A stretch of 50,352 nucleotides of DNA from a virus (taxonomy: Duplodnaviria > Caudoviricetes): positions 1 to 50,352 of IMG/VR virus record IMGVR_UViG_3300048902_000029; one strand, written 5' to 3'. A program made the position numbers and the translations under genes. Positions 9,909 to 49,035 of this stretch are shown one piece after another. The notes beneath the pieces are model-generated. The model saw only the letters and a program-made list of their open reading frames with translations, did not search any database and had not been told where the DNA came from. Each line of letters begins with the position of its first letter. The stretch's first letter is position 1.

Positions 9909-10021
9909 TGGAAGACGATCCCGAGCGCAAGGATAGGTTCCAGCATGAGCTCTTCTCTACGGTGAAGGTTCTCATCGGTTGGGCTGCTATCTGTGTCGTA
10001 GCATGGGTGGTGTTCCACTAA
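9905..10021 (+). CDS. Single-TM microprotein (38 aa)
   Basis: Coupled on both sides; ...VKVLIGWAAICVVAWVVFH. Confidence 0.55.
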   Translation: MMEDDPERKDRFQHELFSTVKVLIGWAAICVVAWVVFH

Positions 10022-15307: not shown

Positions 15308-16579
15308 GTGCAAATGGAAACAGTAAACGATTACATCACGGCAGGCCTGACCCACTCGATCCACACCAGTGAGAGGAGATCCTTCCGTGGCTGCAGACGT
15401 CGATGGGACTGGATCAGCCGACAGTTTTACTATCCCCGAGTCACTGCTCGTCCTCTGGAGTTTGGTGTGGCCTTCCACGCGGCCATGGAGGAATACTACA
15501 AGTCGTACTTGGGGCTGTTCACGAATCCAGATCCTGCTTCATCGTTGGCTATGGCGATCGCAACGTTCAAACGAGTAACGCAGGAACAGCGAGCCAAGTA
15601 CATCCGTCTGAACGGTGACATCGCCCCGGAGATGGATGACTATGCTGACCGCATCGAGGTCGGTGTTGGGATGCTGAACTACTACTTCAAGAACGTAGCA
15701 GAGAAGGCTGACAAGGGCCTCAAGCCTGTCAAGGTCGAGATCAAGTTCGAGGTTCCCATTGTCAACCCTGACACTGGTGAGCAGGACCTCTGGTGCAAGT
15801 GTGACCACTGTTGGCGTCAGTACCACAAGTGGTGCGATGACAACGGCAAGACGGGTATTGGTCAGCGTGACCCGAAATGGAAGGGCCTACCGGTAACGTA
15901 CGGCGGCCGCATCGACATTCTGTTCGTAGATGAACTGGGAAGGCTCTGGATCGGTGACTGGAAGACGGCGGCACGCCTTAGCGGTACTGAGACATCGGAC
16001 GAGTACCTTTGGAACGATGATCAGATCACTAGCTATGTTTGGGCTCTGCGCCTTATCGGTCTTGACGTGGCTGGTTTTATCTATGCCGAGATCAAGAAGG
16101 CTGTACCTGAGGAGCCTGAGCCGAACAAGGTAGTGCGCCTCGGTCGTCGCTACAGTGTCTCGAAGAACATCAACACCACGTACCAGATGTACAAGGACAC
16201 GGTTGAAGAGAACGACTTCGACGCTTACCACCGTGGTCTGTATGACGAGTTCCTAGAGTACCTGCAGGAGAACGCACCCAGGTTCCACAGTCGTCACCAG
16301 ATCGACCGTAACCAGGCACAGTGCGACAATGCGGGTAGGAACATCTGGATGGAAGCGAAGGAGATGACGAACCCTGATCTCCTGATCTATCCTAATCCAG
16401 GACGCTTCCACTGCAAGGGCTTTGGACCGTCTAGCGGTTGCGCCTTCTGGGAACCTTGCCTCGGTAAGGAACGTGGTGAGGACTACACGTACACTCTGGA
16501 CACAATGTTCGATCACCTCGACCGTCACTACTGGGAAGAGGCTAAGCCTAGCACCGACAAGAGGATGGAGCCATCGTGA
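15308..16579 (+). CDS. Cas4/RecB-like PD-(D/E)XK exonuclease
   Basis: N-terminal C, FGVAFHAAME, GRIDIL, IGDWKT, QITSY, C-terminal C...C...C cluster. Confidence 0.85.
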   Translation: MQMETVNDYITAGLTHSIHTSERRSFRGCRRRWDWISRQFYYPRVTARPLEFGVAFHAAMEEYYKSYLGLFTNPDPASSLAMAIATFKRVTQEQRAKYIRLNGDIAPEMDDYADRIEVGVGMLNYYFKNVAEKADKGLKPVKVEIKFEVPIVNPDTGEQDLWCKCDHCWRQYHKWCDDNGKTGIGQRDPKWKGLPVTYGGRIDILFVDELGRLWIGDWKTAARLSGTETSDEYLWNDDQITSYVWALRLIGLDVAGFIYAEIKKAVPEEPEPNKVVRLGRRYSVSKNINTTYQMYKDTVEENDFDAYHRGLYDEFLEYLQENAPRFHSRHQIDRNQAQCDNAGRNIWMEAKEMTNPDLLIYPNPGRFHCKGFGPSSGCAFWEPCLGKERGEDYTYTLDTMFDHLDRHYWEEAKPSTDKRMEPS

Positions 16580-16679
16580 TCGACTGGCTACGCAATCAGC
16601 GTTGGTTGAAGCGCATCCTAAAGCTACATAGTCCTAGTGGTCACGGGCTAGGCACTTGCTGGTGTCAGAAGGAGAAGCG

Positions 16680-16940
16680 ATGATCGCGATTGACTACACC
16701 AGCGTCTGGACCATAGGTTGGTTCCTCTGGCTCCTGTACTTCGTCGTCCTCGAAGGCGTAGCGCTCTTCAACTCCAAGCCAGGTGACACGCTCAGCGAGC
16801 ACGTCTGGGTCTGGTTCGGTACGCAGAAGGGTGACCTCGACAAGCCTGTCACCAACTGGACGCGTCTTCGTCGAGTCATCCTCGGTGGCTTCATGCTTTG
16901 GCTTTCCATTCACTTTCTCACAGGCGGTATCTGGGCATGA
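16680..16940 (+). CDS. Two-TM membrane protein
   Basis: AAGGAG RBS; EGVAL...GDTLSEHVW motif between two hydrophobic helices. Confidence 0.7.
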   Translation: MIAIDYTSVWTIGWFLWLLYFVVLEGVALFNSKPGDTLSEHVWVWFGTQKGDLDKPVTNWTRLRRVILGGFMLWLSIHFLTGGIWA

Positions 16941-17707
16941 CGAACACTTTGACTCCTACCAACTTCGCCGGTCTCAAGATCGAACGACCTCAGAAGGATC
17001 AGACCAGCAAGCTGAACATGCTCATCTACGGGGAGGCCGGAGTTGGGAAGACTTGGTTGGCAGGCAGTGCGAGCGCTGTTCCGTCTATGCGTAACGTTCT
17101 TTACGTTGACGCTGAAGCAGGTAAGGCAACGCTTCGTGAGTGGCCGGGGGTAGAGATCCTGCCTGCCAGAACTTGGCAGAGCTACATCGACATCTACACG
17201 GCACTCAAAGCTGGCGGGCACAGCTACGGTACTGTTGTGCTGGACTCCTTGTCGGAGATCCTCGAGCAGTGCAAGGACAGAGTCATGTTCGAGATGAAGA
17301 TGGACCCTGAGAACGAGAGCCGGGATGAAGACATCCCGAGCATCCGTGAATGGGGTAAGCTGCAGGTTCGTATGCTGCGGCTGATCCGTCTCTACCGTGA
17401 CCTGCCTATGAACGTGATCTTCATCGCACACGCAGAGCGGGTCCAGCTCAAGACAGGCAAGCACAAGTGGATGCCCATGCTCAACGGTAAGATGCAGATG
17501 AAGGTCCCACAGATTCCCGATGTCGTCCTGTACATGTACAACCAGGAAGTCGATGGTGTACAGCGGAGGCTGCTCCTCACCAGCCAGACGGACACTGCGG
17601 TCGCCAAGGTGCGTGGCGCCACGATGCCGATGATCATCGGGGCTGAGGAAACAGTAACAATGAAAACAATCCTGGACTACTACACCAGCGCAAAGGAAAC
17701 CAAGTAA
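16937..17707 (+). CDS. Sak4-like AAA ATPase / single-strand annealing protein
   Basis: IYGEAGVGKT Walker A, VVLDSLS Walker B, VIFIAH. Confidence 0.85.
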   Translation: MTNTLTPTNFAGLKIERPQKDQTSKLNMLIYGEAGVGKTWLAGSASAVPSMRNVLYVDAEAGKATLREWPGVEILPARTWQSYIDIYTALKAGGHSYGTVVLDSLSEILEQCKDRVMFEMKMDPENESRDEDIPSIREWGKLQVRMLRLIRLYRDLPMNVIFIAHAERVQLKTGKHKWMPMLNGKMQMKVPQIPDVVLYMYNQEVDGVQRRLLLTSQTDTAVAKVRGATMPMIIGAEETVTMKTILDYYTSAKETK

Positions 17708-18216
17708 TGGGTCTCAAGGTTACGATGTCGGCCAAGGAAGCCTCCTCGAAGGTTTTCGAGATCATGCCGACCGGCTGGTACAAGGTCACCATCTCGGGGT
17801 GCGAGCTCAAGGAGTCGACCTCCGAGAAGAACCCGGGCAAGCCGATGTACAACGTCGAGTTCACCATCAACGAGCCGGAGAAGTTCGAAGGCCGTAAGGT
17901 GTTCACGAACATCTGCCTCTGGGAAGGTGCGCTGTACTCGGCGAACCAGCTTCTCAACGCTCTCGGCATCGCCACCTCTGAGGGCGAGATCGAGATCCCG
18001 GAGCCCGAGGACCTGCTCGGCGAGGAGATCATGATCAAGCTCGGCTACAAGCCGGCGCAGAAGGTCATGGTCAAGGGCGTCGAGAAGACGTACGACGAGA
18101 ACAACGAGGTCAAGGGTATGGCCGCTATCTCCGACGACCTTCTGGCGAAGGTCAAGGCGACGGCCAACGCGAAGACCACGTCTCCGAAGACAGGTTCTTC
18201 TCTCCTGCCTTCCTGA
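17707..18216 (+). CDS. DUF669-like single-stranded DNA-binding protein
   Basis: FEIMPTGWYKVTI...GKPMYNVEF...GRKVF; sits right after the Sak4-like gene. Confidence 0.7.
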   Translation: MGLKVTMSAKEASSKVFEIMPTGWYKVTISGCELKESTSEKNPGKPMYNVEFTINEPEKFEGRKVFTNICLWEGALYSANQLLNALGIATSEGEIEIPEPEDLLGEEIMIKLGYKPAQKVMVKGVEKTYDENNEVKGMAAISDDLLAKVKATANAKTTSPKTGSSLLPS

Positions 18217-18228
18217 TCCACCTGTGAG

Positions 18229-18260
18229 GGTCCCTTAGCAACGCACCTTGCTAAGGGACC
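18229..18260 (+). terminator. Stem-loop / terminator
   Basis: Perfect 13 bp inverted repeat GGTCCCTTAGCAA/TTGCTAAGGGACC. Confidence 0.65.
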
Positions 18261-18284
18261 TTCCCTTACCTAACAGGGCAGTGC

Positions 18285-20486
18285 ATGGAATCAGTGGTTC
18301 GTACCTTCCTAAAAATGGCCTACGGCCCTGAGGCCGAAGGTTACATGTGCATTGCGTTCCTGTCACACGACAGGGACCGTAAGCGAGAGATGACCGAGAA
18401 GTTCTTCCACTACCCCGAAGAGGTCGACCAGGCCGCTAGGGCTGTGCAAGATGGTAAGCTCATCTCGGACGTCTACTATTGTCCGCAGCTCTTCGAGACG
18501 AAGCGTCGCAAGAAGGATAACGTCAAGACCTGTCCTACTGTTTGGGCCGACCTGGACGATTGTCCTCCAGACGTGCTTCTTGTTCGTCCGAACCTACTTA
18601 TCGAATCATCACCCGGTAGACATCAAGCCCTGTGGCGTCTGTCGCATACAGCCCTGCCGCACGAGGCTGAGGACATCAGCAAGCGCATCGCTTACTTCCA
18701 TGCGGAGGACGGATGTGACCGAAGCGGTTGGGACCTCACGCAGTTGCTCCGAGTTCCGACGACGCCGAACTACAAGTACAGTGGTGAACCTACTGTAGAG
18801 GTCGTTGACTCCATCAATGGCCTGTACGTGGTTAGTGACTTCGAGATGTATCCCGAAGTCAAGCACAGTCAGTTCCTCAAGACGCCTATGCCGACTTCAG
18901 ATCAGCTACCTGACGACGAGCCGGAAGACCTTCTGCAGGGCAAGTACAAGCACGCATTGCTCCCACCCGTGTACGACCTGTTTCACCTCACACCAGAGAA
19001 TGGTCAGGACTGGTCGGAGAAGCTCTGGAAGCTAGAGATGTCCCTCTTCGAGATGGGCATGGAGCGTGAAGAGGTATTCGTCGTAGCATGGGATGCGGCG
19101 TGCAATAAGTACAAGCGTGACGGTAAGGATCCAGAGTACTTGTGGGTCGAAGTCTGTAGGGCTTTCGTCCACTACCAAGAACGTGTCAATGCTATCATCT
19201 TCCCTGGCGCCGAGATCGTCGACCTCATGTCCGAAGAGGAAGAGCTAATCGCCAAGGAACAGGAAGGATTCGTAGAGAGGTACATCGAATGGGCGAGCAG
19301 CCTTGGAGATGCGGCTACACAATACCATCAAGCAGGTGCCTTCACTATCCTAAGTGCCTTGCTTTCGGGGAGAGTGACCCTGCCGACGTCTTACGGACCC
19401 GTTGTACCGAACCTGTGGTTCATGATTCTGGGCGACACGACGTTGACTCGGAAGACCACGGCGATGGACATCGCGACCGACCTTCTGATGGAAGTGGACC
19501 CCGACGTGATCTTGGCGACGGATGGTTCAGTCGAGGGTCTTATGCAACAGCTGTCAACGAGGCCAAAGAGACCGTCTATTTTCTTGCGTGACGAGTTCAG
19601 CGGTCTGCTGGAGATGATCACTAAGAAGGACTACTATGCAGGAATGGCTGAGACTCTCACCAAGCTGTACGATGGAAAGATGCAAAAGAGAGTGCTGCGG
19701 AAGGAGGAGGTTGTTGTACGAAACCCAATCCTTCTCATCTTCGCTGGAGGAATTCGAAACCGAGTCCAGGGCCTACTCACGCACGAGCACGTATCTTCCG
19801 GATTCATCCCACGCTTTATTTTCGTCACTGCAGAGTCTGACACGTCTCGTCTCCAACCCCTCGGACCGCCTACAGCACAAGTACTAGGCAACAAGCATCT
19901 CCTCCTGGATGAGATGAGGAAGCTTCAAGAACACTACGGCCAAACACGTGCAGTGCACATCAAGGCCATCGGTGAGACAATGAATACGGAGGCGCGAACA
20001 GACGCTGAGCTAACACCTGAGGCATGGTTGAGGTACAACGAACTCGAGTCTCGTCTATTGCAGTCTGGTCTTGATAGCGAGAAGCCAGAACTGATGACGC
20101 CTCTCTTCGATCGCCTAGCTAAGAACACTCTGAAGGCTGCAGTCCTTCTTGCCGCAGCACGTTCGGTTGGTCAGCAAGGCGTTACGGTAGAGGTTAGTGA
20201 TATCCTCCATGCCGTCCGCTACTGCAAACAGTGGAGAGCGTACGCCATCGAGGTTGTCAATGGCATCGGCAAGACAACACTCGAACGTGAACTGGAAAGA
20301 ATCCTCAACGCCATCGTGAAGCGGCCAGGCATTTCGAGGTCGCAGCTCATGCAGAGCTACCATCTCACAGCACGTGATGCCACTGCCATGTTCGACACGT
20401 TGATCCAACGCAGCCTGATTACCATGAAGCGCACGGAGGGTACCGGAGCGCAAATGTATTACGCCCTAACAGGAGGAGCAAAGTGA
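18285..20486 (+). CDS. RepB-like primase fused to a DUF3987-type helicase/ATPase
   Basis: WADLD, ESSPGRHQALW, LLRVP..NYKY primase motifs; NLWFMILG...RKTT, DEFSG. Confidence 0.85.
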   Translation: MESVVRTFLKMAYGPEAEGYMCIAFLSHDRDRKREMTEKFFHYPEEVDQAARAVQDGKLISDVYYCPQLFETKRRKKDNVKTCPTVWADLDDCPPDVLLVRPNLLIESSPGRHQALWRLSHTALPHEAEDISKRIAYFHAEDGCDRSGWDLTQLLRVPTTPNYKYSGEPTVEVVDSINGLYVVSDFEMYPEVKHSQFLKTPMPTSDQLPDDEPEDLLQGKYKHALLPPVYDLFHLTPENGQDWSEKLWKLEMSLFEMGMEREEVFVVAWDAACNKYKRDGKDPEYLWVEVCRAFVHYQERVNAIIFPGAEIVDLMSEEEELIAKEQEGFVERYIEWASSLGDAATQYHQAGAFTILSALLSGRVTLPTSYGPVVPNLWFMILGDTTLTRKTTAMDIATDLLMEVDPDVILATDGSVEGLMQQLSTRPKRPSIFLRDEFSGLLEMITKKDYYAGMAETLTKLYDGKMQKRVLRKEEVVVRNPILLIFAGGIRNRVQGLLTHEHVSSGFIPRFIFVTAESDTSRLQPLGPPTAQVLGNKHLLLDEMRKLQEHYGQTRAVHIKAIGETMNTEARTDAELTPEAWLRYNELESRLLQSGLDSEKPELMTPLFDRLAKNTLKAAVLLAAARSVGQQGVTVEVSDILHAVRYCKQWRAYAIEVVNGIGKTTLERELERILNAIVKRPGISRSQLMQSYHLTARDATAMFDTLIQRSLITMKRTEGTGAQMYYALTGGAK

Positions 20487-21313
20487 AGCAGCACGACAGC
20501 GTCGCCATCTTCAGTGGCGGCCTCGACAGTACTACCCTGGTGTACGAGATGCTGCAGCAGGGTCTGACTCCGCACCTGCTGTCCTTCGACTACGGTCAGC
20601 GACACAGCAAGGAGCTTCTCTTTGCAGAGGCTACCGCACACAAGCTAGGTCTCCGATGGGACATCGTCGACCTGACTGGACTCACGAGCCTAATTAGCAA
20701 CTCGGCCCTCACCTCCCCGAAGCGTGACGAGTCGAAGATCGTTCACCTGTCCGGCGATGACGGTGGTGACGGCATGGGCTGGATCGAGGTGCCGGAGGGT
20801 CACTACGCCGAAGACAACATGAAGCTCACCGTGGTACCCAACCGGAACATGATCATGCTGAGCATCGCCGCCGGCGTCATGGTCAACAACAGCTACAAGC
20901 TTCTGGCTACAGGCGTTCACAGCGGAGACCACTTCGTCTACCCTGACTGCCGACCGAACTTCCTGACAGCTCTCAATGCTGCGATCGTGTTCGGCAACGA
21001 AGGCTTCGGAGCTGTACCCAAGCTGGAGGAGTCGCCGCAGATGGCTGGACTCATCTACGCTCCCTTCCTGATGAAGTCCAAAGCGGACATCGCCTACGAA
21101 GCTCTGAACCTGAGTGTTCCGCTGGAGGACACGTGGAGCTGCTACAAGGGCTATCAAGTTCACTGCGGTAGGTGTGGTACATGCGTCGAGCGTCTCGAGG
21201 CCATCTACGAAGCAGAGCTTCGTTTCAACGACGTCGAAACCAGTGCAGGTCTTACCTGGCACGACAAGACTGTGTACGAGGACAACACCTACTGGAAGAC
21301 GGTGACCAAGTGA
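20483..21313 (+). CDS. queC: 7-cyano-7-deazaguanine (preQ0) synthase
   Basis: SGGLDS PP-loop, FDYGQRH..E, VPNRN, YPDCR, TWSCY...CGRCGTC. Confidence 0.96.
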   Translation: MKQHDSVAIFSGGLDSTTLVYEMLQQGLTPHLLSFDYGQRHSKELLFAEATAHKLGLRWDIVDLTGLTSLISNSALTSPKRDESKIVHLSGDDGGDGMGWIEVPEGHYAEDNMKLTVVPNRNMIMLSIAAGVMVNNSYKLLATGVHSGDHFVYPDCRPNFLTALNAAIVFGNEGFGAVPKLEESPQMAGLIYAPFLMKSKADIAYEALNLSVPLEDTWSCYKGYQVHCGRCGTCVERLEAIYEAELRFNDVETSAGLTWHDKTVYEDNTYWKTVTK

Positions 21314-21456
21314 GTCTGTTCCGAAAGAGTGAGACCGGCTGGGGTGGTACCTCTGGTGGAGGTAGCAAGGCGATGGTTATTATCGCTGCAGCCATCTTCG
21401 GCATCCCCACTCTGGGTGTGATCGGTTCGATCGGGTACGTGATCTTCGGTGGGTAG
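21310..21456 (+). CDS. Single-TM microprotein, array member 1 (48 aa)
   Basis: GTGA overlap with queC; ...SGGGSKAMVIIAAAIFGIPTLGVIGSIGYVIFGG. Confidence 0.65.
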   Translation: MSLFRKSETGWGGTSGGGSKAMVIIAAAIFGIPTLGVIGSIGYVIFGG

Positions 21457-21634
21457 GAACCAACCACGGTATCGCCCAGCGAACCACCCGTTCCAGACGG
21501 GGCCGCAACGCGTACCTCCGAGCAAGGGATCTGGAGGTGGTAGCAAGTCAATGGTGATCATCGCTGCCATCACCTTCGGAGCTCCTGTCGTAGTATTCCT
21601 CAGTGCTGTGGGATACGTGATCGCGGGTGGGTAA
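21449..21634 (+). CDS. Single-TM microprotein, array member 2 (61 aa)
   Basis: Paralog of member 1: SGGGSKSMVIIAAITFGAPVVVFLSAVGYVIAGG. Confidence 0.7.
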   Translation: MGRNQPRYRPANHPFQTGPQRVPPSKGSGGGSKSMVIIAAITFGAPVVVFLSAVGYVIAGG

Positions 21635-21779
21635 CGAATGGCGTAATCCGCCCAAGCGTCCGAAGCCTCCGCCAAGTACTGACAAAGGTCACGACCTGCT
21701 ACCGTGCAGTCTGGTAGCGCTAGCCATCCTGGCTATGCCTACAGGTCTACTAGTCTTCGGCCTATTGAGGGTCGGATAA
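21627..21779 (+). CDS. Single-TM microprotein, array member 3 (50 aa, not in track)
   Basis: Same GGTGGGTA start/stop overlap; MGNEWRNPPKRPKPPPSTDKGHDLLPCSLVALAILAMPTGLLVFGLLRVG. Confidence 0.6.
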   Translation: MGNEWRNPPKRPKPPPSTDKGHDLLPCSLVALAILAMPTGLLVFGLLRVG

Positions 21780-21792
21780 AGAAAGGAACGGT

Positions 21793-22722
21793 ATGCGTAT
21801 CAAGAAGACACTGACCGTTGGAGTGGCGATGGTATCGCTGTTCTTCGGCGTGCAGACGATCGGCTTCGAGCCGGTGCGTGCTGCAGAGAAGTTCTCGGCC
21901 AACAATCCTCCGGCAATCTCGTCGGCGGACAAGCTCAACACTCCTACCGTCGCACAGCGTGACGGTCTGAAGGGTCGTGCAGGTAAGGCGCCCGCGGGTA
22001 GCCCCACCGCTCGCCTGGGTGGGCCGTACTACTTCTACGCGGCCGGTCAGCAACAGCCTGCAGTACCGCCCACCGATTCGATCAGCGCAGCCATGAACGT
22101 CGGAAACCCTTGGGTCTCGGCATACGACTGGCACACGCTGACTGAGATGGCTTGGCAGAACACTTCTGGTACCAACAACGTCGAGCTGGGCGTGACCCGT
22201 GACCTGACTACCTTCGGTGACACGAAGCCGCGGATCTTCGCGTACTCGTGGATCAACGGAGTCGGCCAGGGCTACAACACCAACTTCGTCAACTACTCGG
22301 GCCGTACCTACACAGTAGGCGATGACCTTACGGCTGACGTCGGCACTGAGCAGCTCTTCGGTATCAGCCAGACGGCTACGGCGTACTGGTTGAGCTACAA
22401 GAACACCTGGCTGGGGTACTACCTCAAGACGAACTGGTCGGGCTACAGCCCTTCGCAGACACCTCCCAACGGTGGTAAGCTGCAATTCTTCGGTGAGGTC
22501 GCAGCTGGTAGCACTACGCCGTGCACGGACATGGGTGGTGCACCTGCACCGCTCGCTACGAGCACGGTTGGTACGCGTATCGCTTCTGTGACCTACACAG
22601 GGACGCCTACGCCGACCACAGAGAACCTGAGCATGTTCACCAGCAACTCGGCTTGGTACAACGCTGCACTCATCGGCAGCAGTACTCGATCGCTTCGCTA
22701 CGGTGGCCCTGGCTCCTGCTAG
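21793..22722 (+). CDS. Secreted neprosin-like (DUF239) glutamic prolyl endopeptidase
   Basis: Signal peptide; neprosin-order motifs VELG..., FGD.KPRIF.Y.W, GYN..FV, YWL....WLGYY, FFGEV, DMG. Confidence 0.7.
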   Translation: MRIKKTLTVGVAMVSLFFGVQTIGFEPVRAAEKFSANNPPAISSADKLNTPTVAQRDGLKGRAGKAPAGSPTARLGGPYYFYAAGQQQPAVPPTDSISAAMNVGNPWVSAYDWHTLTEMAWQNTSGTNNVELGVTRDLTTFGDTKPRIFAYSWINGVGQGYNTNFVNYSGRTYTVGDDLTADVGTEQLFGISQTATAYWLSYKNTWLGYYLKTNWSGYSPSQTPPNGGKLQFFGEVAAGSTTPCTDMGGAPAPLATSTVGTRIASVTYTGTPTPTTENLSMFTSNSAWYNAALIGSSTRSLRYGGPGSC

Positions 22723-22855
22723 TGTAACAGGTCTCCAGTGTGCGCTCACAGATCGGCACTGGAGTACGAAGGCGTGTGGAGTTTGAGTTAGCTTCATACC
22801 GCTTGTTTAACATCCTCTCTGACTCACTACACAACACCACACGGCGGAGGGTCCA

Positions 22856-23413
22856 ATGCGTTTGAAGATCAGGCACAACATGGAGATAGCTCACAGGCTG
22901 TCTCTTGACACTGGTAAGTGTCAGAACATCCACGGCCATGGTATGCAGGTCGAGTTGGTCCTGCTTGTCTCACCTGGGCCTGAAGGCATGGCCGTGAATG
23001 GTCGGGGTGACAAGCTGGAGTTCGGCGCCATGAAGAAGGCGTTCCGAAAGTACATCGATGAGGTGTACGATCACCGACTCGTCCTGAACCAGGAGGACGA
23101 GTGGGCGCAGCCGATCTACCAGGTCGCTGAGGTCCAGACGTACATGACCTACAAGGTGATGACCGAGGGCGAGGGGCCCGAGGAGGTCTTGAAGGCGAAG
23201 CTGACCAACGACCAGAAGTTCCTGCCGGGTCTGTCCCTCGTGCGTGCAGATCCTACGGTCGAGAACCTGGCCAAGTGGATTGCCGAATGGGCGTGCCACC
23301 AGTTCAGCTGCGACGTGATCTGTCGCATCGACGAAACCAAAACCAACGGTGCCGAGGCCATGTATCAGTTCGCTGGTCAGCTCGGCCCACGATTCGCAGA
23401 GGGTGCACGATGA
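22856..23413 (+). CDS. queD: 6-carboxytetrahydropterin synthase
   Basis: AHRL, CQNIHGH, FG..K, DHR.LN, PTVENLA, ET motifs. Confidence 0.92.
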   Translation: MRLKIRHNMEIAHRLSLDTGKCQNIHGHGMQVELVLLVSPGPEGMAVNGRGDKLEFGAMKKAFRKYIDEVYDHRLVLNQEDEWAQPIYQVAEVQTYMTYKVMTEGEGPEEVLKAKLTNDQKFLPGLSLVRADPTVENLAKWIAEWACHQFSCDVICRIDETKTNGAEAMYQFAGQLGPRFAEGAR

Positions 23414-24108
23414 GTCTGAGGGTGATCGAAGTCTATGGCAGTTATCAGGGAGAGGGACCGAACACGTCTCGGCCCACTACCTTCGTCCGTTTTGCTGGCT
23501 GCAACTTCAAGTGCCCTCTCTGGCCTTGCGACACGCAGCACGCAATCGATCCGAAACTCTTCAAGGACAAGCAACGGTTCCTTTCTCCGGCAGAGTTGGC
23601 CGATGAAGTCTTCAACATCGGGATCAACAACGTCTGCCTCACGGGTGGTGAGGTCTTCCTTCAGAACAAGGAAGCACTGATCGAGTTCACCAACATCCTG
23701 GTGGAACACGGTATCGAGATTGAGTGCTTCACTAACGGTGCACTGAAGTGGTACGACGTAGTCGTCCAGAACACTGACTACATCATCATGGACTGGAAGC
23801 TTCCGGGTAGTGGTGAGTCGTACGAGAACGACGGTGTGTTCCGAGGTAACTTCGAGCAGCTGAACTGTCTCGATGCTATCAAGTTCACCATCGCAGATCG
23901 CAACGACTACGAAACGGCACGTGACCGTTACATCAGAATCGTCACGACGATTCCCATGAAGAACCGTCCGACGGTATTTGCAGGCGTCGTTTGGGGTAAG
24001 CTTCAGACGGAAGAGCTCTGCAAGTGGATGCTTGAGGACCAGCTCGACTGGAGCCTCAACGTTCAGGTACACAAGTTCATCTGGCATCCAGACAAGATCG
24101 GGGTGTAG
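23410..24108 (+). CDS. queE: 7-carboxy-7-deazaguanine synthase (radical SAM)
   Basis: QGEG, FVRFAGCNFKC..W.CDT, TGGE, D.K.PGSG, Q.HK.IW. Confidence 0.93.
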   Translation: MSLRVIEVYGSYQGEGPNTSRPTTFVRFAGCNFKCPLWPCDTQHAIDPKLFKDKQRFLSPAELADEVFNIGINNVCLTGGEVFLQNKEALIEFTNILVEHGIEIECFTNGALKWYDVVVQNTDYIIMDWKLPGSGESYENDGVFRGNFEQLNCLDAIKFTIADRNDYETARDRYIRIVTTIPMKNRPTVFAGVVWGKLQTEELCKWMLEDQLDWSLNVQVHKFIWHPDKIGV

Positions 24109-24109
24109 T

Positions 24110-24325
24110 ATGCCGAGTCCACATGGACGTAAGCCACCCAATCCTCTCTACGTTCCGAAGCAGCACGGACGTAAGCCTAGTGCTCCCAAGCCGTACAAGA
24201 GTAGCGGGAAGTCTTCGTCAAGCACTACAGGACCTATCACTGCCTTCGCGGCAGTTATCTTTGCCGCACCCGCTCTGGTAACTGTAAGTGTTATCGTATA
24301 CGCAGTTGTGAACAAGGGAGCTTGA
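24110..24325 (+). CDS. Single-TM microprotein, dispersed array member 4 (71 aa)
   Basis: Pro/Lys-rich N-terminus with HGRKP twice, then AAVIFAAP...IVYAVV TM. Confidence 0.65.
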   Translation: MPSPHGRKPPNPLYVPKQHGRKPSAPKPYKSSGKSSSSTTGPITAFAAVIFAAPALVTVSVIVYAVVNKGA

Positions 24326-24900
24326 CGTTGGAACTCTTCGACAATGACGAGCACGCTGCACCTGACTGTGCTGAGGACCTTCTAGTCCACTTCGCAGGTC
24401 TGCAGATGAACGAGCATGGTGCTGAGACGCCGAAGCGCTTTCTGTCCATGCTGGACGAACTGACGAAGTGCAAGGACTGTGATGGTACCTGCATGAAGTG
24501 GAAGGCGTTCGCAGAGGATGACATCGACCAGATGATCATCATCAAGAAGATTCCCTTCAGCAGTGTGTGTAACCATCATGTCATTCCGTTCGTCGGCTTC
24601 GCTTACATCGGCTACGTGCCCAGTGACACGGTTGCCGGCTTGTCGAAGTTCGCTCGGGTGGTTCACCACTTCGCACACAAGCTTCAGGTGCAGGAGAACC
24701 TCACGGCGGAGGTTGCAGACTTCCTAGAGGATGCTTTGACTCCGAAGGGTGTCATGGTCGTCATGGAAGCAGAGCACCTGTGCATGACAATTCGTGGAGT
24801 GCAAACTCCTGGTACCACAACGCGAACCGTCGTTACTCGTGGCGTGTTCGCTGATCACAGTCGTACGGCGAAGATGGAATTCCTGGAGGGAATCAAATGA
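24322..24900 (+). CDS. folE: GTP cyclohydrolase I
   Basis: ETPKR, CNHH.IPF.G, GLSKFAR, LQVQE.LT, EHLCM.IRGV. Confidence 0.95.
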   Translation: MTLELFDNDEHAAPDCAEDLLVHFAGLQMNEHGAETPKRFLSMLDELTKCKDCDGTCMKWKAFAEDDIDQMIIIKKIPFSSVCNHHVIPFVGFAYIGYVPSDTVAGLSKFARVVHHFAHKLQVQENLTAEVADFLEDALTPKGVMVVMEAEHLCMTIRGVQTPGTTTRTVVTRGVFADHSRTAKMEFLEGIK

Positions 24901-25277
24901 GTATTCACGGAGACCACCCGCAAGAGCCTAGTAGTGGCGCGGTGTGGAATGATGGCCTTCACTTTCTGATGAGTCAGGCCACGGAAGACAGCAACCGCTG
25001 GTTCCCTGGCAAGGCTCAGGAACTCCCGAACCTCGTCCTCTGCATGTGCGGTGAAGCTGGTGAGGTCGCTAACCTCGTCAAGAAGATCGTACGCGGATCG
25101 ATCACCATCCAGGACGCCAAGGATCGAGGCCTCGAAGAGGAGATCGTTGACGTTCTGATCTACCTCCTCAACCTGATGGGTGCTAAGGAGTTCAAGGATA
25201 CGGACTGGATGAAGATCTGGTATGCGAAGAGGATCTTTAACGAGGAGCGGTTCGGTCTGGAGGCTGACAGTGAGTGA
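24897..25277 (+). CDS. MazG-like nucleotide pyrophosphohydrolase
   Basis: GEAGEVANLVKK...EEIVDVLIY (ExxE...ExxD). Confidence 0.88.
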   Translation: MSIHGDHPQEPSSGAVWNDGLHFLMSQATEDSNRWFPGKAQELPNLVLCMCGEAGEVANLVKKIVRGSITIQDAKDRGLEEEIVDVLIYLLNLMGAKEFKDTDWMKIWYAKRIFNEERFGLEADSE

Positions 25278-25569
25278 GCTCGAAGACAAGATCAACCAGT
25301 ACGCTCTGGAGTACGACCAGAAGACGTACGAGCGTCACATCGCAGGCGAAGAGAAGTACGGCGTAGGCACGTGGCTCAAGATCGATACCCTCCAGCACGC
25401 TATGGATGAGGTACTCGACTTGGGTAACTACGCCAAGTTCACCTTCATCAAGCTTCGACTTCTCCAGGACAAACTCGTGGAGTTCCAAGCCGATGCAAGT
25501 ATCGCACATGCACGTCCGGAGTACGACGGGACGTTGAACAAGCTTCACCAAGGAGGCCTACCAGGATGA
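25270..25569 (+). CDS. Second all-alpha NTP pyrophosphatase (MazG / dNTP diphosphohydrolase-like)
   Basis: G.EKYG...W...D.LQHAMDEVLD..NY pattern; GGAGG RBS. Confidence 0.6.
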   Translation: MSELEDKINQYALEYDQKTYERHIAGEEKYGVGTWLKIDTLQHAMDEVLDLGNYAKFTFIKLRLLQDKLVEFQADASIAHARPEYDGTLNKLHQGGLPG

Positions 25570-26339
25570 GAGCAGCACTGATCCCTCCGAAGGGATACTT
25601 CGACACAGCTCTGCTTTCCGACTACCACTTGATCTTGGCTCAGATCAAGGACCCCCTCTACATCGCAACGTACGTCAACGACGGTACAGACGACGACTTC
25701 CTGATCTTGGACAACGGTGCCGCTGAAGGTGGTTCTGTTTCCGACGAAGAGCTCTTGCGTGTTGCTGCACTGTACGGTGTCGACGAGGTCGTAGTTCCTG
25801 ACGTGATCGGTGACTTCAGGGAGACCATCGAACGTTGCAAAGGGTTCATGAGTACCTACGGCGTACACGTAGAAACTGGTGACTCGATCGGCTTCATGGG
25901 TGTACTCCAATCGAACGGTGCCAAGGGTGACTGGCTCGCCTGCATCGACGAGTACAGCAAGCACGCCTCGATCAAGACGCTAGGTATCCCTCGACACTTC
26001 GTCGACAAGGATCCGTACATGCGTCTCATGGTGTGTGAGTACATCAAGCAGAACGATCTCGGCGAACGGTTCGAAGTGCACCTGTTGGGGACGAATGCTA
26101 AGTTCCCTGCAGAGATCAAAATGCTTGCCAAGGAGCACGACTGGATCCGTGGTGTTGACAGCTCCATGCCGTACAACTACACCATGGATGGTAAGCAGCT
26201 CAAGCACATGCGACCAGGTGTAACACGTCCGGAGAATTACTTCGAGCACTATCATGTACCTATGCAGCAGAACCTGCTGACGAAGAACATCAACACGTAC
26301 TTGAGGTGGGCGAATGATCCCGAAAGCCCCTGGAGCTAA
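25566..26339 (+). CDS. TGT-fold base-exchange enzyme, DpdA-like 7-deazaguanine transglycosylase
   Basis: TGT motifs in order: ILDNG, VPDV, GVLQ, HLLG, GVDSS; located in the preQ0 cluster. Confidence 0.7.
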   Translation: MRAALIPPKGYFDTALLSDYHLILAQIKDPLYIATYVNDGTDDDFLILDNGAAEGGSVSDEELLRVAALYGVDEVVVPDVIGDFRETIERCKGFMSTYGVHVETGDSIGFMGVLQSNGAKGDWLACIDEYSKHASIKTLGIPRHFVDKDPYMRLMVCEYIKQNDLGERFEVHLLGTNAKFPAEIKMLAKEHDWIRGVDSSMPYNYTMDGKQLKHMRPGVTRPENYFEHYHVPMQQNLLTKNINTYLRWANDPESPWS

Positions 26340-28707
26340 CTGCTCCGAGTGCCCACTCAAAGACGAGAAGTTCGCGCCGTCCCTCATTCCTGAGGGGCGG
26401 CCCCTTCTGGCAGTAGTGGGAGAAGCTCCTGGTTTCCAGGAGACAGTGTTCGGTGAGCCCTTCAAGGGTCCATCTGGGAAGCTGCTCGACAAGGTTCTCA
26501 ACCATCACGGATTCCAACGAAGTGAGGTGTTATATACAAATGTATGCCTATGTCGGCCTGAGGATAATGCGACGCCTCCTGCGGCAGCGCAAAGTGCGTG
26601 TCGTCAGCGTCTGGTACAAGAGCTCAGCAAGTCAGGAGTTCGAGACGTTGTTGCACTGGGAGGAACGGCCGTGGGCGCTCTCGTTGACGACCCGAGGTCC
26701 ATTACCTCGCTACGAGTCGGGCCCCCCAAGAGACCGGCTCTATCGTTTCGGGACAGCAGTATTGAAAGAGTTGTCCCGACGTGGCACCCAGCTTACTGTC
26801 TTAGAAATGCAGATGCATTTCCAACACTCGTGGCAGACATCGAGAAGGTCACCCGAGAGAGCTTGGGCGACTGGGTCGAGCCTGAGTGGTACTACGTCGA
26901 CGAAGTAGAGATCGCACACGCCCAACTTGACGCTCTCATGGCCTGGCAGGATAGAACTGGGCGCTACGAGTTGGTCGTAGACATTGAGGTTGGTATTGAG
27001 AAGGATACCAACTTCGATCACCCGAACATGTACCAAATGCTCTGCATAGGCTACGCCTGGGATAAAGGGAAGGCGGGTGTCATCGGTGAGGTCGCCCTTC
27101 AGGACCTTGGAGTACGTGCAAAGGTTGGAACGCTCCTTGCAAGGTCTAAGCTCATCGCGCACAACGGCAAGTTCGACCTTGCAGGAATGTATCCATGGTA
27201 TAAAAATCTCACCCTCTGGTTCGACACAATGCTTGCCCATTACGCTCTGGACGAAAGGTCTGGCGGGCACGGTCTCAAGGTGCTGGCCGTGGAGCGCCTG
27301 GGCGCACCAGCTTACGACGACGAGATCAAGCAGTACGTTCCGCGTGGTGGAAACTACGCAAACATTCCTCGCGAGATTCTCTACAAGTACAACGCACTGG
27401 ACGTTGCCTGCACGTGGAATTTGTACGAGCTGTTTTCTACCGAGCTCGATGCACACAGTACTGAAGTATGGCCCTATCCAGGACTGCCTATACGAACACT
27501 GCGTGACTGGCATGACTTCCTGGTTGCAGCTTCAAACCAACTGATGTTCCTGGAGCTCAACGGTATCTCGGTCGACGTCGAGTACAACACCACGTTGAGC
27601 TATGCGTACCTCGAGAAGCTAGGATCGATGGAGGATGAGCTTTCCAAGATCGTCGCAGCGGCAACTGACGGAAAGACAGCGGGGATTAATCCTCGGAGTC
27701 CAAAGCAAGTCAAAGAGTTCCTCTACAACCAAGGCATCCGGGTCGAGTCAACCAACAAGGACACGTTGGAAGGTCTTAGGGAACGGGTTGCCGAAGAGTC
27801 CTTCGCAGGCCAGTTCATTGGAGGCCTTCTGGGACACCGCTACGAGGCTAAGCGATATGGAACCTTTGTCAAGGGTATACGGCAAAGGCTTTTCGCTGGA
27901 CGTGTTTACACTAACTACCTTCTCCACGGCACCACCTCTGGCCGCTTGGCGAGTAGGAATCCGAACCTACAGAACATTGTTCGGGACAAGGATATTCGGA
28001 GGCAGTTCGTTGCATCGAAGCCTGGAAACATTCTCATCCAGGCGGACTACAAACAGGCAGAGGGCCGCGTCATTGCGTGGCTCGCTCAGGATGAATACCT
28101 GAGGGACATCTTCGCCTCTGGTGAGGACTTGTTCAACCAACTCGGCGCAGGGCTCTACAAGAGTAAGTTCGATCCAAACAACAAGGAACAGCGTGTTCGT
28201 GTCAAAGCGTTCTTCTACGGCATCGCCTTCGGCCGAGAGTACTACTCCATCGCACAGGAGTATAAGATCCCTCTTCAGGAAGCTCAGAGGGACTTCGCAG
28301 CCTTCCTCGACACGATCCCTTCTACAGTCATGTGGCAGCAGTCGATCAAGGACCACATCCTTGCAGGCCACGACCTCATCACACCTTTCGGACGGAGGCG
28401 TCGTTACTCTCTCATCACACCGCACAACCAATCTGAAGTCTTCAACGAAGCACTCAGTTACCTTCCGCAATCTATCGCTTCCGACATTTGCCTCTCAGCT
28501 CTTGTACGACTTCGTCCGCAGCTACGAGGCATTGGCTTCATTAGGCTCACCATCCATGACGCGCTTGTCGTCGAAGCAGCTGAGTCACGACTGGACGAAG
28601 TGTCGGAGATGCTACGAGCTGAGATGGTCGAAGCGGCTGAGCGCATCACCAAGTACGTCCCATTCGAAGTAGACGTAAGTCACGGTCCTAGCTGGGGAGA
28701 TTTGTAA
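26314..28707 (+). CDS. Family A DNA polymerase with an N-terminal family-4 UDG-like domain and a 3'-5' exonuclease
   Basis: CSEC, GEAPG, PF.GPSG..L, TN..LCRP, HPAY.LR (UDG4); DIE, HNGKFD, YNALD (exo); GRL.S..PNLQN, DYKQAE.R, HDA (PolA). Confidence 0.93.
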   Translation: MIPKAPGANCSECPLKDEKFAPSLIPEGRPLLAVVGEAPGFQETVFGEPFKGPSGKLLDKVLNHHGFQRSEVLYTNVCLCRPEDNATPPAAAQSACRQRLVQELSKSGVRDVVALGGTAVGALVDDPRSITSLRVGPPKRPALSFRDSSIERVVPTWHPAYCLRNADAFPTLVADIEKVTRESLGDWVEPEWYYVDEVEIAHAQLDALMAWQDRTGRYELVVDIEVGIEKDTNFDHPNMYQMLCIGYAWDKGKAGVIGEVALQDLGVRAKVGTLLARSKLIAHNGKFDLAGMYPWYKNLTLWFDTMLAHYALDERSGGHGLKVLAVERLGAPAYDDEIKQYVPRGGNYANIPREILYKYNALDVACTWNLYELFSTELDAHSTEVWPYPGLPIRTLRDWHDFLVAASNQLMFLELNGISVDVEYNTTLSYAYLEKLGSMEDELSKIVAAATDGKTAGINPRSPKQVKEFLYNQGIRVESTNKDTLEGLRERVAEESFAGQFIGGLLGHRYEAKRYGTFVKGIRQRLFAGRVYTNYLLHGTTSGRLASRNPNLQNIVRDKDIRRQFVASKPGNILIQADYKQAEGRVIAWLAQDEYLRDIFASGEDLFNQLGAGLYKSKFDPNNKEQRVRVKAFFYGIAFGREYYSIAQEYKIPLQEAQRDFAAFLDTIPSTVMWQQSIKDHILAGHDLITPFGRRRRYSLITPHNQSEVFNEALSYLPQSIASDICLSALVRLRPQLRGIGFIRLTIHDALVVEAAESRLDEVSEMLRAEMVEAAERITKYVPFEVDVSHGPSWGDL

Positions 28708-32288: not shown

Positions 32289-33188
32289 TTACTTCTTCGC
32301 CTGGAGCAGTGCGAGGAGCTGATCGACCTTGGACTCGAGCGAAGTCATGCGAGCTTCGATCGGATCGAGCTTGCCGTCGATGATCTTGTCGACCTGATCA
32401 CGGATGCCGGACGGACCAGGAACCTTGGTACCATCCTGATTGGTCAGGGTACCGTCGTTGCGAAGGTCGAGGTAGACCTTGCTGGCGTTCTCCTGAGCAG
32501 CCGCCTTGTTGTTGGCTGCGATCTTCTTGGCGATGCCGCTCTTCGGGTTGCCCATGTCTTCGTCGATCTTGTACGCAGTCGCCTGAGCCGTGGCCTGTGC
32601 GATGTCGTCTACGCTAGGCATATCGAGCCACTCCCTTTCGTCTTGAACCATTGCGATGAACTCTGTCCACGGGAAGTTCGGTCCCGGGTCCGTGTGATCG
32701 CCGTTGTCCTGAGGATACGCTACGGAAACATCGCCGTGTCCACAGATACCCTTCTGACCTGCAGCCATCTGAGATGACGTAATCTTGCGAACAGGAATGC
32801 CCCACTTCTTGCAGTCACGCGCTACCTGTACAGCAGCTCGCTGAAGCATAGGCAAACCATACCCACTGTCCAGCCACGTCGCCTTGGAGAACGAAGCCTT
32901 GGCGCACAGCTCGTACTGAATACCCTTCTGGTTACCATTCCAGAAGGCTGCGTACGCTACGTCATTGGTACGCACACATTGTACGATGCTGTCGTTGTCG
33001 ACGAAGTAATGCGTCGACGTCCCGTCAGTACGACGAGCATCATACGCCGCACCGTCCTCAGCGGACTGCGCGTGGCTGGAACCCTCTGTGTCGTGGATGA
33101 CGATGAACTGTACACTCGTACGATTCACGTCTTCCCATGACGCAGGCTCGACCCACGTGAGGTCAGGGTACTCAGGGCTCTTTGCCAT
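32289..33188 (-). CDS. Endolysin, N-acetylmuramoyl-L-alanine amidase (Amidase_2)
   Basis: IVIHDTE, STHYFVD, YELC, GH.D....HTDPG..FPW. Confidence 0.9.
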   Translation of the reverse strand: MAKSPEYPDLTWVEPASWEDVNRTSVQFIVIHDTEGSSHAQSAEDGAAYDARRTDGTSTHYFVDNDSIVQCVRTNDVAYAAFWNGNQKGIQYELCAKASFSKATWLDSGYGLPMLQRAAVQVARDCKKWGIPVRKITSSQMAAGQKGICGHGDVSVAYPQDNGDHTDPGPNFPWTEFIAMVQDEREWLDMPSVDDIAQATAQATAYKIDEDMGNPKSGIAKKIAANNKAAAQENASKVYLDLRNDGTLTNQDGTKVPGPSGIRDQVDKIIDGKLDPIEARMTSLESKVDQLLALLQAKK

Positions 33189-48849: not shown

Positions 48850-49035
48850 TCACTCTTTCGGTTTGGGTAAGGGCGGGAAGACCGCCAGCCACGTCCCCGT
48901 AGGAATACCCAAGAGCCACGCTTGAGGTTGCTCACCAGCCTTGAACAAGTACACGTACAGTGATGCTGCGACTACGACGCCCCACACGCTCAGTACAGCT
49001 GTTAGGAACCTGATCTTGTATTGGTCGATCGTCAC
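48850..49035 (-). CDS. Small two-TM membrane protein
   Basis: AAGGAG RBS, GTG start. Confidence 0.6.
   Translation of the reverse strand: MTIDQYKIRFLTAVLSVWGVVVAASLYVYLFKAGEQPQAWLLGIPTGTWLAVFPPLPKPKE

Follow-up and report, generated by a model that had tools for sequence, protein, structure and literature searches.

The closest described relative of the central gene of the locus reported here encodes neprosin of Nepenthes x ventrata (PDB entries 7zu8, 7zva, 7zvb, and 7zvc; Pfam family PF03080), which is known as a plant digestive prolyl endopeptidase and whose residues E188 and E297 were proven by mutagenesis to form the catalytic dyad, according to the neprosin study (PMC9343461). The PF03080 family was proposed to belong with MEROPS G3 in a preprint by Ting. 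The eqolisins (MEROPS G1; scytalidoglutamic peptidase, 2ifr and 1s2b) have the same beta-sandwich fold class and a Gln/Glu dyad, and their second catalytic Glu is placed in a position equivalent to that of the neprosin type in PMC9343461. With regard to the genomic setting, cultured actinophages carry the preQ0/7-deazaguanine operon as an unbroken unit; the four genes of Arthrobacter phage Sonali and Mycobacterium phage Funsized are arranged in the order queC-queD-queE-folE and abut with no ORFs between them. Small single-span proteins are encoded among the early or replication genes of other phages, as exemplified by the replication anchor p16.7 of phi29 and the exclusion proteins Imm and Sp of T4. 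A full-text literature search returned no paper linking neprosin or DUF239 with phages, no characterised prokaryotic PF03080 member came up in our searches, and nothing relevant was listed by literature searches on small membrane proteins in actinophages or 7-deazaguanine clusters.

The window, that is, the whole stretch of 50,352 nucleotides that was analysed, is a near-complete 50-kb phage genome from soil, and the phage is probably an actinophage with an actinobacterium as host. QueC of the window is 41-43% identical to QueC of Sonali and Funsized, and the order of the four que/fol genes is the same, whereas in the window a 1.5-kb block consisting of three microgenes and the gene for a 309-aa protein splits queC (upstream border) from queD (downstream border), and a further microgene splits queE from folE (Table 1). 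The reading that we favour, with a probability of about 0.6, is that a normally compact preQ0 operon received two independent accessory insertions, one of an exported neprosin-type enzyme and one of tail-anchored microproteins, and that the peptidase is no dedicated processor of the microproteins.

An earlier note on this DNA had described three overlapping microgenes (21310-21779) between queC and queD within a que operon, and its coordinates and sequence features, including the start of members 2 and 3 inside the end of the preceding gene, were reproduced, together with the identities of QueC, QueD, QueE, and FolE. The GTG start of microgene 1 at 21310 overlaps the queC stop codon TGA (21311-21313). 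Microgene 2 starts with GTG GGT at 21449 within the GGT GGG TAG end of microgene 1, and microgene 3 starts with GTG GGT at 21627 within the GGT GGG TAA end of microgene 2, each with an overlap of 8 nt. The start of the peptidase ORF at 21793 is 13 nt past the stop codon of microgene 3, with the purine-rich sequence GAAAGGA in front of it. Microgene 4, a fourth copy absent from the earlier note, is located 1.4 kb downstream of the peptidase gene, past queD and queE; its ATG lies one base after the queE stop codon, and its own stop codon overlaps the TTG of folE. In the region 17500-26500, no promoter-like site was found by the promoter scan, and 3 terminator-like sites were found versus 5.9 expected by chance; the intergenic stretch from the peptidase gene to queD is predicted to fold no more stably than its shuffled versions (z -0.11). 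The ORF at 25566-26339 was considered as DpdA, an identity not borne out by the searches. Among the public runs, no RNA dataset containing this DNA was listed; a comparison with contigs of two soil DNA runs yielded the probable source contig and, in a second run, one identical 151-base piece, and no joints.

Table 1. Genes of the queC-folE region of the window with the evidence for each assignment
Feature	Coordinates	Strand	Evidence
queC, 7-cyano-7-deazaguanine synthase	20483..21313	+	Pfam QueC E 1.4e-48; TIGR00364 153.8 bits (cut-off 150.3)
microgene 1, 48 aa	21310..21456	+	family profile E 1.2e-14; coding score 0.42
microgene 2, 61 aa	21449..21634	+	family profile E 3.5e-19; coding score 0.06
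microgene 3, 50 aa	21627..21779	+	architecture match alone; profile E 8.3; coding score 0.09, highest of six frames
neprosin-family (PF03080) putative exported glutamic endopeptidase, 309 aa	21793..22722	+	Pfam, profile, fold, conserved residues
queD, PTPS family	22856..23413	+	Pfam PTPS E 7.7e-17
queE, radical SAM 7-carboxy-7-deazaguanine synthase	23410..24108	+	NCBIfam QueE models E 1.5e-39, under curated cut-offs; Pfam Radical_SAM match
microgene 4, 71 aa	24110..24325	+	family profile E 4.9e-27; coding score 0.14
folE, GTP cyclohydrolase I, TTG start	24322..24900	+	Pfam GTP_cyclohydroI E 6.2e-54

The 309-aa protein is a member of the neprosin family with a Glu/Glu dyad, as had been proposed from its neprosin-order motifs; its signal peptide had been noted as well. 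It matched PF03080 with 36.6 bits (cut-off, 22; E 3.9e-9) over profile positions 10-214 of 214, and a precomputed PF03080 match was present in 8 of 9 other homologues. A search of the PDB with the single sequence gave chance matches only, and a profile was required; the profile of 10 homologues matched neprosin (7zu8) at E 2.9e-17. The AlphaFold2 model of the protein is of medium confidence (mean pLDDT, 64.9; pTM, 0.72), and with this model the five top-ranked Foldseek matches were all neprosin entries (E 7.8e-8 to 4.9e-7; TM, 0.41-0.63), followed by scytalidoglutamic peptidase, an eqolisin (E 9e-5), for which the TM on the query was just 0.32-0.36 and no sequence homology to the window peptidase was detected. 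A signal peptide occupies approximately aa 1-30 and is followed by a linker modelled with low confidence (aa 31-78), and the remainder of the protein (aa 79-309) forms a beta-sandwich domain. The hydrophobic signal-like N-terminal segment is visible in the window peptidase and its viral homologues, and the cleavage site of the signal peptide, like the topology of the microproteins, was judged by eye and by rule.

In the profile alignment, which is not a structural one, neprosin E188 and E297 are matched by the two candidate catalytic Glu residues pointed out previously, E131 in VELG and E235 in GEV; the numbering of neprosin residues was checked against PMC9343461. Also common to both proteins are Y82 and Y161, aligned with neprosin Y136 and Y220, the GGPG-C C-terminal end, and secretion, which is predicted for the window protein. 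The identity between the two is only about 22-25%, and, of five further residues that the neprosin study had mutated, the same profile-based alignment shows four to be exchanged (H134 for Y, Q173 for E118, W175 for A120, and Y214 for V157), with Y136 alone kept, as Y82, in 93 of 97 homologues. The position of H134 is Y or F among the homologues, and that of F169 is an invariant His. In contrast to the plant enzyme, the phage protein has no Neprosin_AP pro-domain (PF14365; no match at E <= 1) and its signal peptide is joined to the domain by only about 48 residues, of which aa 41-50 have a mean pLDDT of 90 and might pack on the domain. Since these active-site residues are replaced, peptidase activity and specificity are extrapolations, and cleavage after proline is likewise an extrapolation because of the four differing residues and the missing plant pro-domain. 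The residues H114, E118, E131, and E235 do not vary among the prokaryotic and viral homologues (97 of 97), which argues for catalysis at the neprosin site.

Relatives of the peptidase were confirmed for 139 of 172 pattern matches in species-representative genomes. The bacterial ones are uncharacterised PF03080 (DUF239) proteins of Actinoplanes, Streptomycetaceae, Myxococcota, and Saccharibacteria, at most 39% identical to the window peptidase; the domain, an export signal region at the N-terminus, and the H/E/E/E set of invariant residues are common to all of them. In the tree, a 15-row group contains every one of the 10 viral copies together with 4 proteins from metagenomes and a single small MAG contig; with an SH-aLRT of 84 (under the 95 mark) and several long branches, this group hints at a phage-borne peptidase lineage. 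The position of the gene varies: it follows the terminase gene in two records (L002 and L003; the placement was called partly by eye), follows tail genes in L009, and lies behind a primase gene in G004, whereas in the sister phage G005 it is missing between the same two flanking genes. Neither tblastn with the peptidase nor megablast with 20483-24900 gave a match among 50,697 phage records, and neither PHROGs nor NCBIfam contains a family for the peptidase or the microproteins. The Pfam PF03080 profile as query missed everything in five viral records, G004 included; this blank is a failure of sensitivity and not absence, since our own profile scores E 1e-56 in G004.

All four window microproteins have a basic Pro-rich N-terminal tail, a Gly/Ser/Lys linker, and one C-terminal helix with a central Pro, with the Pro-free tail of microprotein 1 as the exception. 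The polar N-terminus and the single hydrophobic helix had been noted earlier for the first three, as had the duplication of members 1 and 2, and both observations held: microproteins 1 and 2 are clearly paralogous (34 aa aligned at 62% identity; phmmer E 1e-8), and the 3' parts of their genes have a mean column identity of 78% over 131 aligned DNA columns. In microprotein 1, a short polar N-terminus leads into a GGGSK linker, and the protein ends in GYVIFGG; microprotein 2 has the same linker behind a basic Pro-rich N-terminus (6 K/R, 6 P, and no D/E); and microprotein 4, the best-conserved family member, has two HGRKP-type repeats and an SSGKSSSS linker. Between microproteins 4 and 2, phmmer detected a relationship (E 1e-3 to 3e-3), and conserved relatives link both. 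Microprotein 3 has a Pro/Lys-rich N-terminus and the same architecture, and no homologue was found for it in the word-indexed search, nor does it match the profile of the other microproteins; since it has no detectable sequence relative, its gene is the most doubtful one in the block. The N-terminal parts contain 3-17 K/R and mostly 0-2 D/E, and their C-terminal tails of 4-13 residues are nearly uncharged, from which the N-termini are predicted to be cytoplasmic by the positive-inside rule.

Microproteins 1, 2, and 4 form one small conserved family, recognised by repeats of the basic HGRKPPNP type, a linker of Gly and Ser, and a membrane helix at the C-terminus with Pro at its centre; all three elements are conserved among the members. 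Their profile matched 15 representatives at E <= 1e-3 among 1.84 billion, comprising 13 small proteins and two large ones (P0014 and P0019) that were rejected as repeat artefacts. The family profile (alignment A5) includes the three window proteins as rows, so that the independent support is the 13 small representatives. Five further viral records carry the family in tandem arrays; G004 has 2 copies and G005 has 3, interleaved with DnaE-like, pyrophosphatase, and ThyX genes. In L011, the repeat motif is carried on a different, Cys-Cys-Pro amphipathic C-terminus; under the bolder proposal given below, which we hold to be unlikely, the repeat would then be the working end and the anchor exchangeable. 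No curated family in Pfam, PHROGs, or NCBIfam was matched by the microproteins, and 17 family members gave only chance-level matches to Pfam (best E 0.014). A tblastn search of the 50,697 phage records with microprotein 4 returned nothing at E <= 1, and the ESM Atlas look-up gave top scores of 0.84, below the quotable level. Of two metagenome scans with the microprotein alignment, one returned nothing, and the other returned two short contigs only, with the same protein as P0017. The phi29 and T4 proteins serve only as a lead to how the microproteins may work; they have N-terminal anchors or other topologies, unlike the microproteins, and we know of no HGRKPPNP-type repeats in them.

The earlier note had interpreted the block as a self-contained peptide/protease cassette. 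On such a model, the exported neprosin-like enzyme would cut after Pro in the microprotein tails, releasing peptides or trimming anchors for signalling, exclusion, or surface remodelling. The neprosin family assignment of the note, both Glu residues, and the que-operon setting stand; the cassette is poorly supported, and we regard cleavage of the tails as improbable. What speaks for it is the position of three microgenes immediately before the peptidase gene, with which they form one coupled string, 6-10 Pro in each tail of microproteins 2, 3, and 4, the prolyl specificity of plant neprosin (PMC9343461), the presence of both elements in the window and in G004, and a small membrane-protein ORF directly after the peptidase gene in L003. 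The two elements largely assort independently among homologues, which the earlier note itself had named as counting against a cassette. The microprotein family was found in 0 of 8 other neprosin-bearing viral records, although most of these are fragments (9-71% complete), and absence from them is therefore weak evidence; of the 5 other viral records carrying the microprotein family, 1 (G004) contains a neprosin-like gene, 8 kb from the microgenes; and a microgene within 5 kb was found at 0 of 80 bacterial neprosin loci, where the best match (E 0.037) was rejected as an off-frame translation of high-GC DNA. The viral records were scanned by short patterns, by which at least 1 divergent copy was missed. 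In G005 (100% complete), there are three microgenes and the peptidase gene is missing from the syntenic site, and G013 (95% complete) has the peptidase and no microprotein family member. Among near-complete genomes, both elements are present in 2 of the 4 with either one, and a neprosin-like gene is present in 2 of the 3 with the microprotein family (the window and G004), so a loose functional link may exist, both elements being rare. Further points against cleavage are the placement of microgene 4 beyond two que genes, the Pro-free tail of microprotein 1, the predicted separation of cytoplasmic tails from an exported enzyme, and the loss of most residues that shape the neprosin active site. 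The co-occurrence across genomes required of a RiPP-like precursor with a dedicated protease was not found in these same counts. A holin/lysis cassette does not fit either, the only endolysin-like gene (32289-33188, minus strand) being located among tail genes approximately 10 kb away and not beside the microproteins.

The 309-aa protein could also be no protease, its neprosin/concanavalin-like beta-sandwich acting as a glycan-binding or glycan-cleaving envelope enzyme or as an inactive binding module. Foldseek also matched GH16 glucanases, xyloglucanases, and galectins (E 1e-4 to 2e-3), the dyad is kept in only 43% of representative PF03080 sequences according to the Ting preprint, and both the dissimilar surroundings of the active site and the lack of a characterised prokaryotic member in our searches are consistent with such a role. 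We nevertheless consider it very unlikely, given that the dyad, the extra Glu, and the His are invariant in every homologue, that the TM on the query was just 0.17-0.33 for glucanases and lectins versus 0.44-0.53 for neprosin, and that homology at the sequence level was found to neprosin alone. As for the microgenes, there is some small chance that not all are expressed as annotated, microgene 3 being a decayed gene or a chance ORF and microgenes 1 and 2 perhaps being translated only from an internal ATG into bare helices of 27-28 aa. Codon usage gives weak support for microgenes 2, 3, and 4, whose coding scores lie at or under the 5th percentile of in-frame windows (0.135; off-frame 95th percentile, 0.037); microgene 3 has no homologue; the protein collection lists the window peptidase and not the window microproteins; and in microgenes 1 and 2 the internal ATG is preceded by GGAGG at a distance of 10-13 nt. 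However, the GGAGG represents the codons of the conserved Gly-Gly motif, the N-terminal tails of the family are conserved as protein across separate contigs, none of the other five frames outscores the annotated one in any microgene, and the 8-nt stop/start overlap is identical at both junctions.

Under the favoured reading of two independent accessory insertions, the 309-aa gene would encode a Sec-exported neprosin-family beta-sandwich enzyme with a Glu/Glu dyad, in which the additional invariant His and Glu are typical of the prokaryotic and phage branch. It would most likely act as a glutamic endopeptidase outside the cytoplasmic membrane, with envelope or extracellular proteins of the infected cell as its targets, and its gene would be a mobile 'moron'-type gene gained and lost by phages. 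Microproteins 1, 2, and 4 would be phage-borne tail-anchored membrane proteins, and microprotein 3 maybe a diverged copy, the C-terminal helix lying in the membrane and the N-terminal tail, strongly basic and rich in Pro, Gly, and Ser, on the cytoplasmic side. With its HGRKPPNP-type repeats, this tail probably functions as a linear motif tethered to the membrane, to which a cytoplasmic partner would bind. The overlap or close abutment of stop and start codons suggests that the accessory genes are read together with the que genes, and the peptidase would not be a processing enzyme dedicated to the microproteins. A bolder proposal, which we hold to be unlikely, is that the microproteins are phage-specific membrane-tethered basic polyproline motifs, amplified as tandem copies in nucleotide-metabolism and replication operons of soil actinophages, that would hold the DNA-synthesis and DNA-modification machinery of the phage, DNA, or a host factor at the inner membrane face.

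For the neprosin family, known from a plant digestive enzyme, an additional invariant His and Glu are part of the active site in both the phage copies and the 139 confirmed bacterial relatives, and the phage copies are small, predicted to be exported, and easily tested. The microproteins constitute a family of conserved tiny genes missing from Pfam, PHROGs, and NCBIfam, and their repeated placement among nucleotide-metabolism genes is a concrete lead to their function. A normally compact DNA-modification operon is thus able to take up unrelated accessory genes, and the polyproline motifs, if that proposal is true, would represent a new kind of phage organiser or host-takeover module.

The microgene coordinates, overlaps and operon placement described in an earlier note are all present in the sequence (see the table). 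Cultured phages with the QueC proteins most similar to that of the window (41-43% identity) were taken as operon references, and two of them, Arthrobacter phage Sonali and Mycobacterium phage Funsized, were inspected. In both, queC, queD, queE and folE abut with no gene between them, whereas in the window a 1.5-kb block carrying microgenes 1-3 and the peptidase gene splits queC from queD. Because the que genes abut in these references, gene order marks the block as inserted into an operon that is usually compact. The que cluster would be expected to include a DpdA-type transglycosylase, and it contains a 257-aa ORF between a MazG-like gene and polA. This ORF gave no match in Pfam, PHROG, NCBIfam or PDB; with BLASTP it matched, only weakly (E 0.06), a Sonali gene annotated as queuine tRNA-ribosyltransferase.

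Features of the que region and other ORFs discussed in the text
Feature	Coordinates	Strand	Remarks
queC	20483-21313		Pfam QueC, E 1.4e-48; exceeds TIGR00364 cut-off
Microgene 1	21310-21456		48 aa; GTGA overlap with the end of queC
Microgene 2	21449-21634		61 aa; GTG GGT start within the GGT GGG TAG end of microgene 1
Microgene 3	21627-21779		50 aa; GTG GGT start within the GGT GGG TAA end of microgene 2
Neprosin-type peptidase ORF	21793-22722		309 aa; 13 bases past microgene 3, preceded by GAAAGGA
queD	22856-23413		downstream of the peptidase ORF
queE	23410-24108		after queD
Microgene 4	24110-24325		71 aa; between queE and folE, 1 base past the queE stop
folE	24322-24900		TTGA overlap with microgene 4
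257-aa ORF	25566-26339
Amidase-type endolysin-like gene	32289-33188	minus	between minor-tail and structural genes, not in a separate lysis cassette
Further small ORFs, 1-2 hydrophobic helices	3384-3497, 9905-10021, 16656-16940	plus
Further small ORFs, 1-2 hydrophobic helices	48430-48753, 48850-49035	minus

The 309-aa protein, proposed in the earlier note to be neprosin-like, scored 36.6 bits against PF03080 (gathering threshold, 22 bits) with nearly the whole model covered. Apart from the window's own protein, 9 relatives (32-65% identity) came from a word-indexed search of 5.8 billion proteins; 8 of the 9 contain PF03080, and the profile built from all ten sequences matched neprosin crystal structures (E 2.9e-17). 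According to PMC9343461, with which the chain numbering in the profile alignment is consistent, the neprosin dyad consists of E188 and E297, and the E188Q and E297Q forms are inactive. These residues align with E131 (in VELG) and E235 (in GEV), the two glutamates already picked out as catalytic candidates. An AlphaFold2 model calculated from the ten-sequence alignment was of medium quality (pLDDT 64.9, pTM 0.72); neprosin entries filled the first five ranks among the Foldseek matches of this predicted structure in the PDB (E 8e-8 to 5e-7), followed by the eqolisin scytalidoglutamic peptidase and then, at far lower TM scores, by GH16 glucanases and galectins. Profile and residue comparison places the 309-aa protein in the neprosin family, as had been proposed.

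Plant neprosin carries a Neprosin_AP pro-domain, to which the window protein gave no match; the latter has a signal-peptide-like N-terminus, with cleavage read by eye after VRA, followed by a linker of roughly 48 residues modelled with low confidence. Among five further residues mutated in the neprosin study, only Y136 is kept; H134 is replaced by Tyr or Phe, Q173 by Glu and W175 by Ala, and Y214 falls at a variable position. Beyond the dyad, an H-x-L-x-E motif (H114 and E118) is common to the 97 prokaryotic and viral homologues (fetched loci L002-L105 and proteins P0002-P0010), and no variation is seen at H114, E118, E131 or E235 (each 97/97), whereas F169 and Q173 occupy the positions of H114 and E118 in plant neprosin. 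These homologues appear to be a prokaryotic branch whose active site has its own form. The 309-aa protein probably catalyses at the neprosin site; that it cuts after proline and works best at acid pH would be extrapolation. The N-terminus of another viral neprosin-like protein (locus L005, 318-1337) ends in L-I-A-A-G-C, which we take to be a lipobox-like motif, so that this protein may be a lipoprotein, not a free secreted enzyme.

Bacterial relatives were sought by pattern in one genome for each GTDB species; 139 of 172 candidates were confirmed and 80 were kept. Most of the 80 come from Actinoplanes and other Micromonosporaceae, from Streptomycetaceae and from Myxococcota, and some from Saccharibacteria; none exceeds 39% identity to the window peptidase. 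For Pfam 35, 50 PF03080 sequences in 39 bacterial species are given in the Ting preprint. A pattern scan of IMG/VR gave 8 neprosin loci, and a ninth, in the near-complete phage record G004, was detected only by our own neprosin profile (E 1e-56), this copy being too divergent to match the Pfam model. In a quick maximum-likelihood tree, all ten viral rows grouped with 4 metagenome proteins and 1 small MAG contig (15 rows; SH-aLRT 84; several long branches), a hint, not a result, of a possible phage-borne peptidase lineage. Full-text literature searches found no publication linking neprosin or DUF239 to phages. In loci L002 and L003 the gene follows the terminase gene, in L009 it follows tail genes, and G004 and the window have it in the replication region; since it occupies different places across viral records, it behaves as a mobile accessory gene. 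It is also a clean presence/absence difference between G004 (55868-56818; 15868-16815 in locus L020) and its syntenic sister G005, in which the counterpart site (17143-17166) is empty and the two flanking genes adjoin with nothing between.

Sequence comparison bore out the reported duplication of microproteins 1 and 2. Microgene 4, outside the region of the earlier note, encodes the best-conserved family member. With microproteins 1, 2 and 4 combined into a profile, 15 matches at E <= 1e-3 were obtained among 1.84 billion representatives; two of the 15 were rejected as repeat artefacts. The 13 small representatives (56-106 aa) contain 1-3 basic proline repeats of HGRKPPNP or VPKxHGRKPxAPKP type, then a linker (SSGKSS or GGGSK-like), a central-Pro helix and, after a GY(V/I) motif, a tail of very few residues, and two further proteins from the word-indexed search follow the same repeat-linker-helix plan. 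One representative joins microprotein 4 repeats to a microprotein 2 linker and therefore ties the window copies together. Pfam, PHROGs and NCBIfam gave no match to the family. Microprotein 3 has the same architecture with no relative detectable by sequence; it could be a copy that has diverged, or no gene at all. Codon usage supported microgene 1 well and microgenes 2, 3 and 4 weakly. The DNA of the conserved Gly-Gly-Gly-Ser-Lys linkers (21355-21372 and 21533-21550) includes a GGAGG with an in-frame ATG 10-13 nt downstream, and an internal start yielding only the helix is possible in microgenes 1 and 2. The five further small helix ORFs, which lie on the coding strand, showed no sequence relation to the family.

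The N-terminal parts of the family contain 3-17 Lys/Arg, with at most 2 Asp/Glu in 15 of 17 aligned members, and 4-13 nearly uncharged residues follow the helix. Judged by the positive-inside rule, the microproteins would be tail-anchored, with their Pro-rich tails facing the cytoplasm.

Besides the window, five other viral records carry the family, including G004 (61 kb, 99% complete) and G005 (62 kb, 100% complete), both of 62% G+C and only distantly related to the window (portal protein, about 32% identity). G005 has three tandem copies between the genes for a DnaE-like polymerase, a 182-aa protein and thyX; at the same place G004 has two copies flanking a pyrophosphatase gene; the window copies are interleaved with queC, queE, folE and the MazG-like gene. 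In 3/3 near-complete genomes, then, the family is surrounded by genes of nucleotide metabolism, and stops overlap starts. In comparison locus L010 (93-1498), six tandem small ORFs were judged by eye to be of similar build: the N-terminus is polar or basic, Gly-Cys directly precedes a hydrophobic helix, and the tail is short. Only one of the six is recognised by the family profile. Three tandem genes in locus L011 (6015-6725) carry HGRKPPNP-type N-terminal repeats on a different C-terminus, where a Cys-Cys-Pro motif and an Arg-rich amphipathic stretch replace the hydrophobic helix.

The window spans an entire viral record of IMG/VR (50,352 bases) and is estimated to be 98% complete, with about 55% G+C and no tRNA genes found. 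Megablast against 50,697 cultured phage records detected no close relative, and the DNA polymerase I of the window is less than 30% identical to any of these. The endolysin-like protein matched 924 phage records, 923 of them from phages of Actinomycetota (including Mycobacterium, Propionibacterium/Cutibacterium, Gordonia and Rhodococcus), so the host is likely, not proven, to be an actinobacterium. The endolysin-like protein shares 47% identity with one from G005.

The peptidase and microgenes had been proposed to form a self-contained peptide/protease cassette. That proposal did not hold up well, since the two are mostly found apart across viral and bacterial records, and we consider it unlikely. 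No family member was found in the 8 other neprosin-bearing viral records, only 1 of which is at least 90% complete (fetched flanks and whole records), or within 5 kb of the 80 bacterial neprosin loci; among the five other family-bearing records, a neprosin-like gene occurs only in G004, 8 kb downstream. A plausible small membrane ORF adjoins the peptidase gene only in the window and L003, among 9 distinct viral neprosin loci. Four near-complete genomes carry either element: 2 have both, 1 microgenes only and 1 the peptidase only. Each element thus occurs alone, which excludes an obligatory pairing in either direction; the two may be linked more loosely, or soil actinophages may simply share a gene pool.

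The window is best read as holding two independent accessory insertions, the peptidase and the microprotein family. The former would be an exported neprosin-family glutamic endopeptidase acting outside the membrane, and the tail-anchored microproteins would present a conserved basic polyproline tail at its cytoplasmic face.
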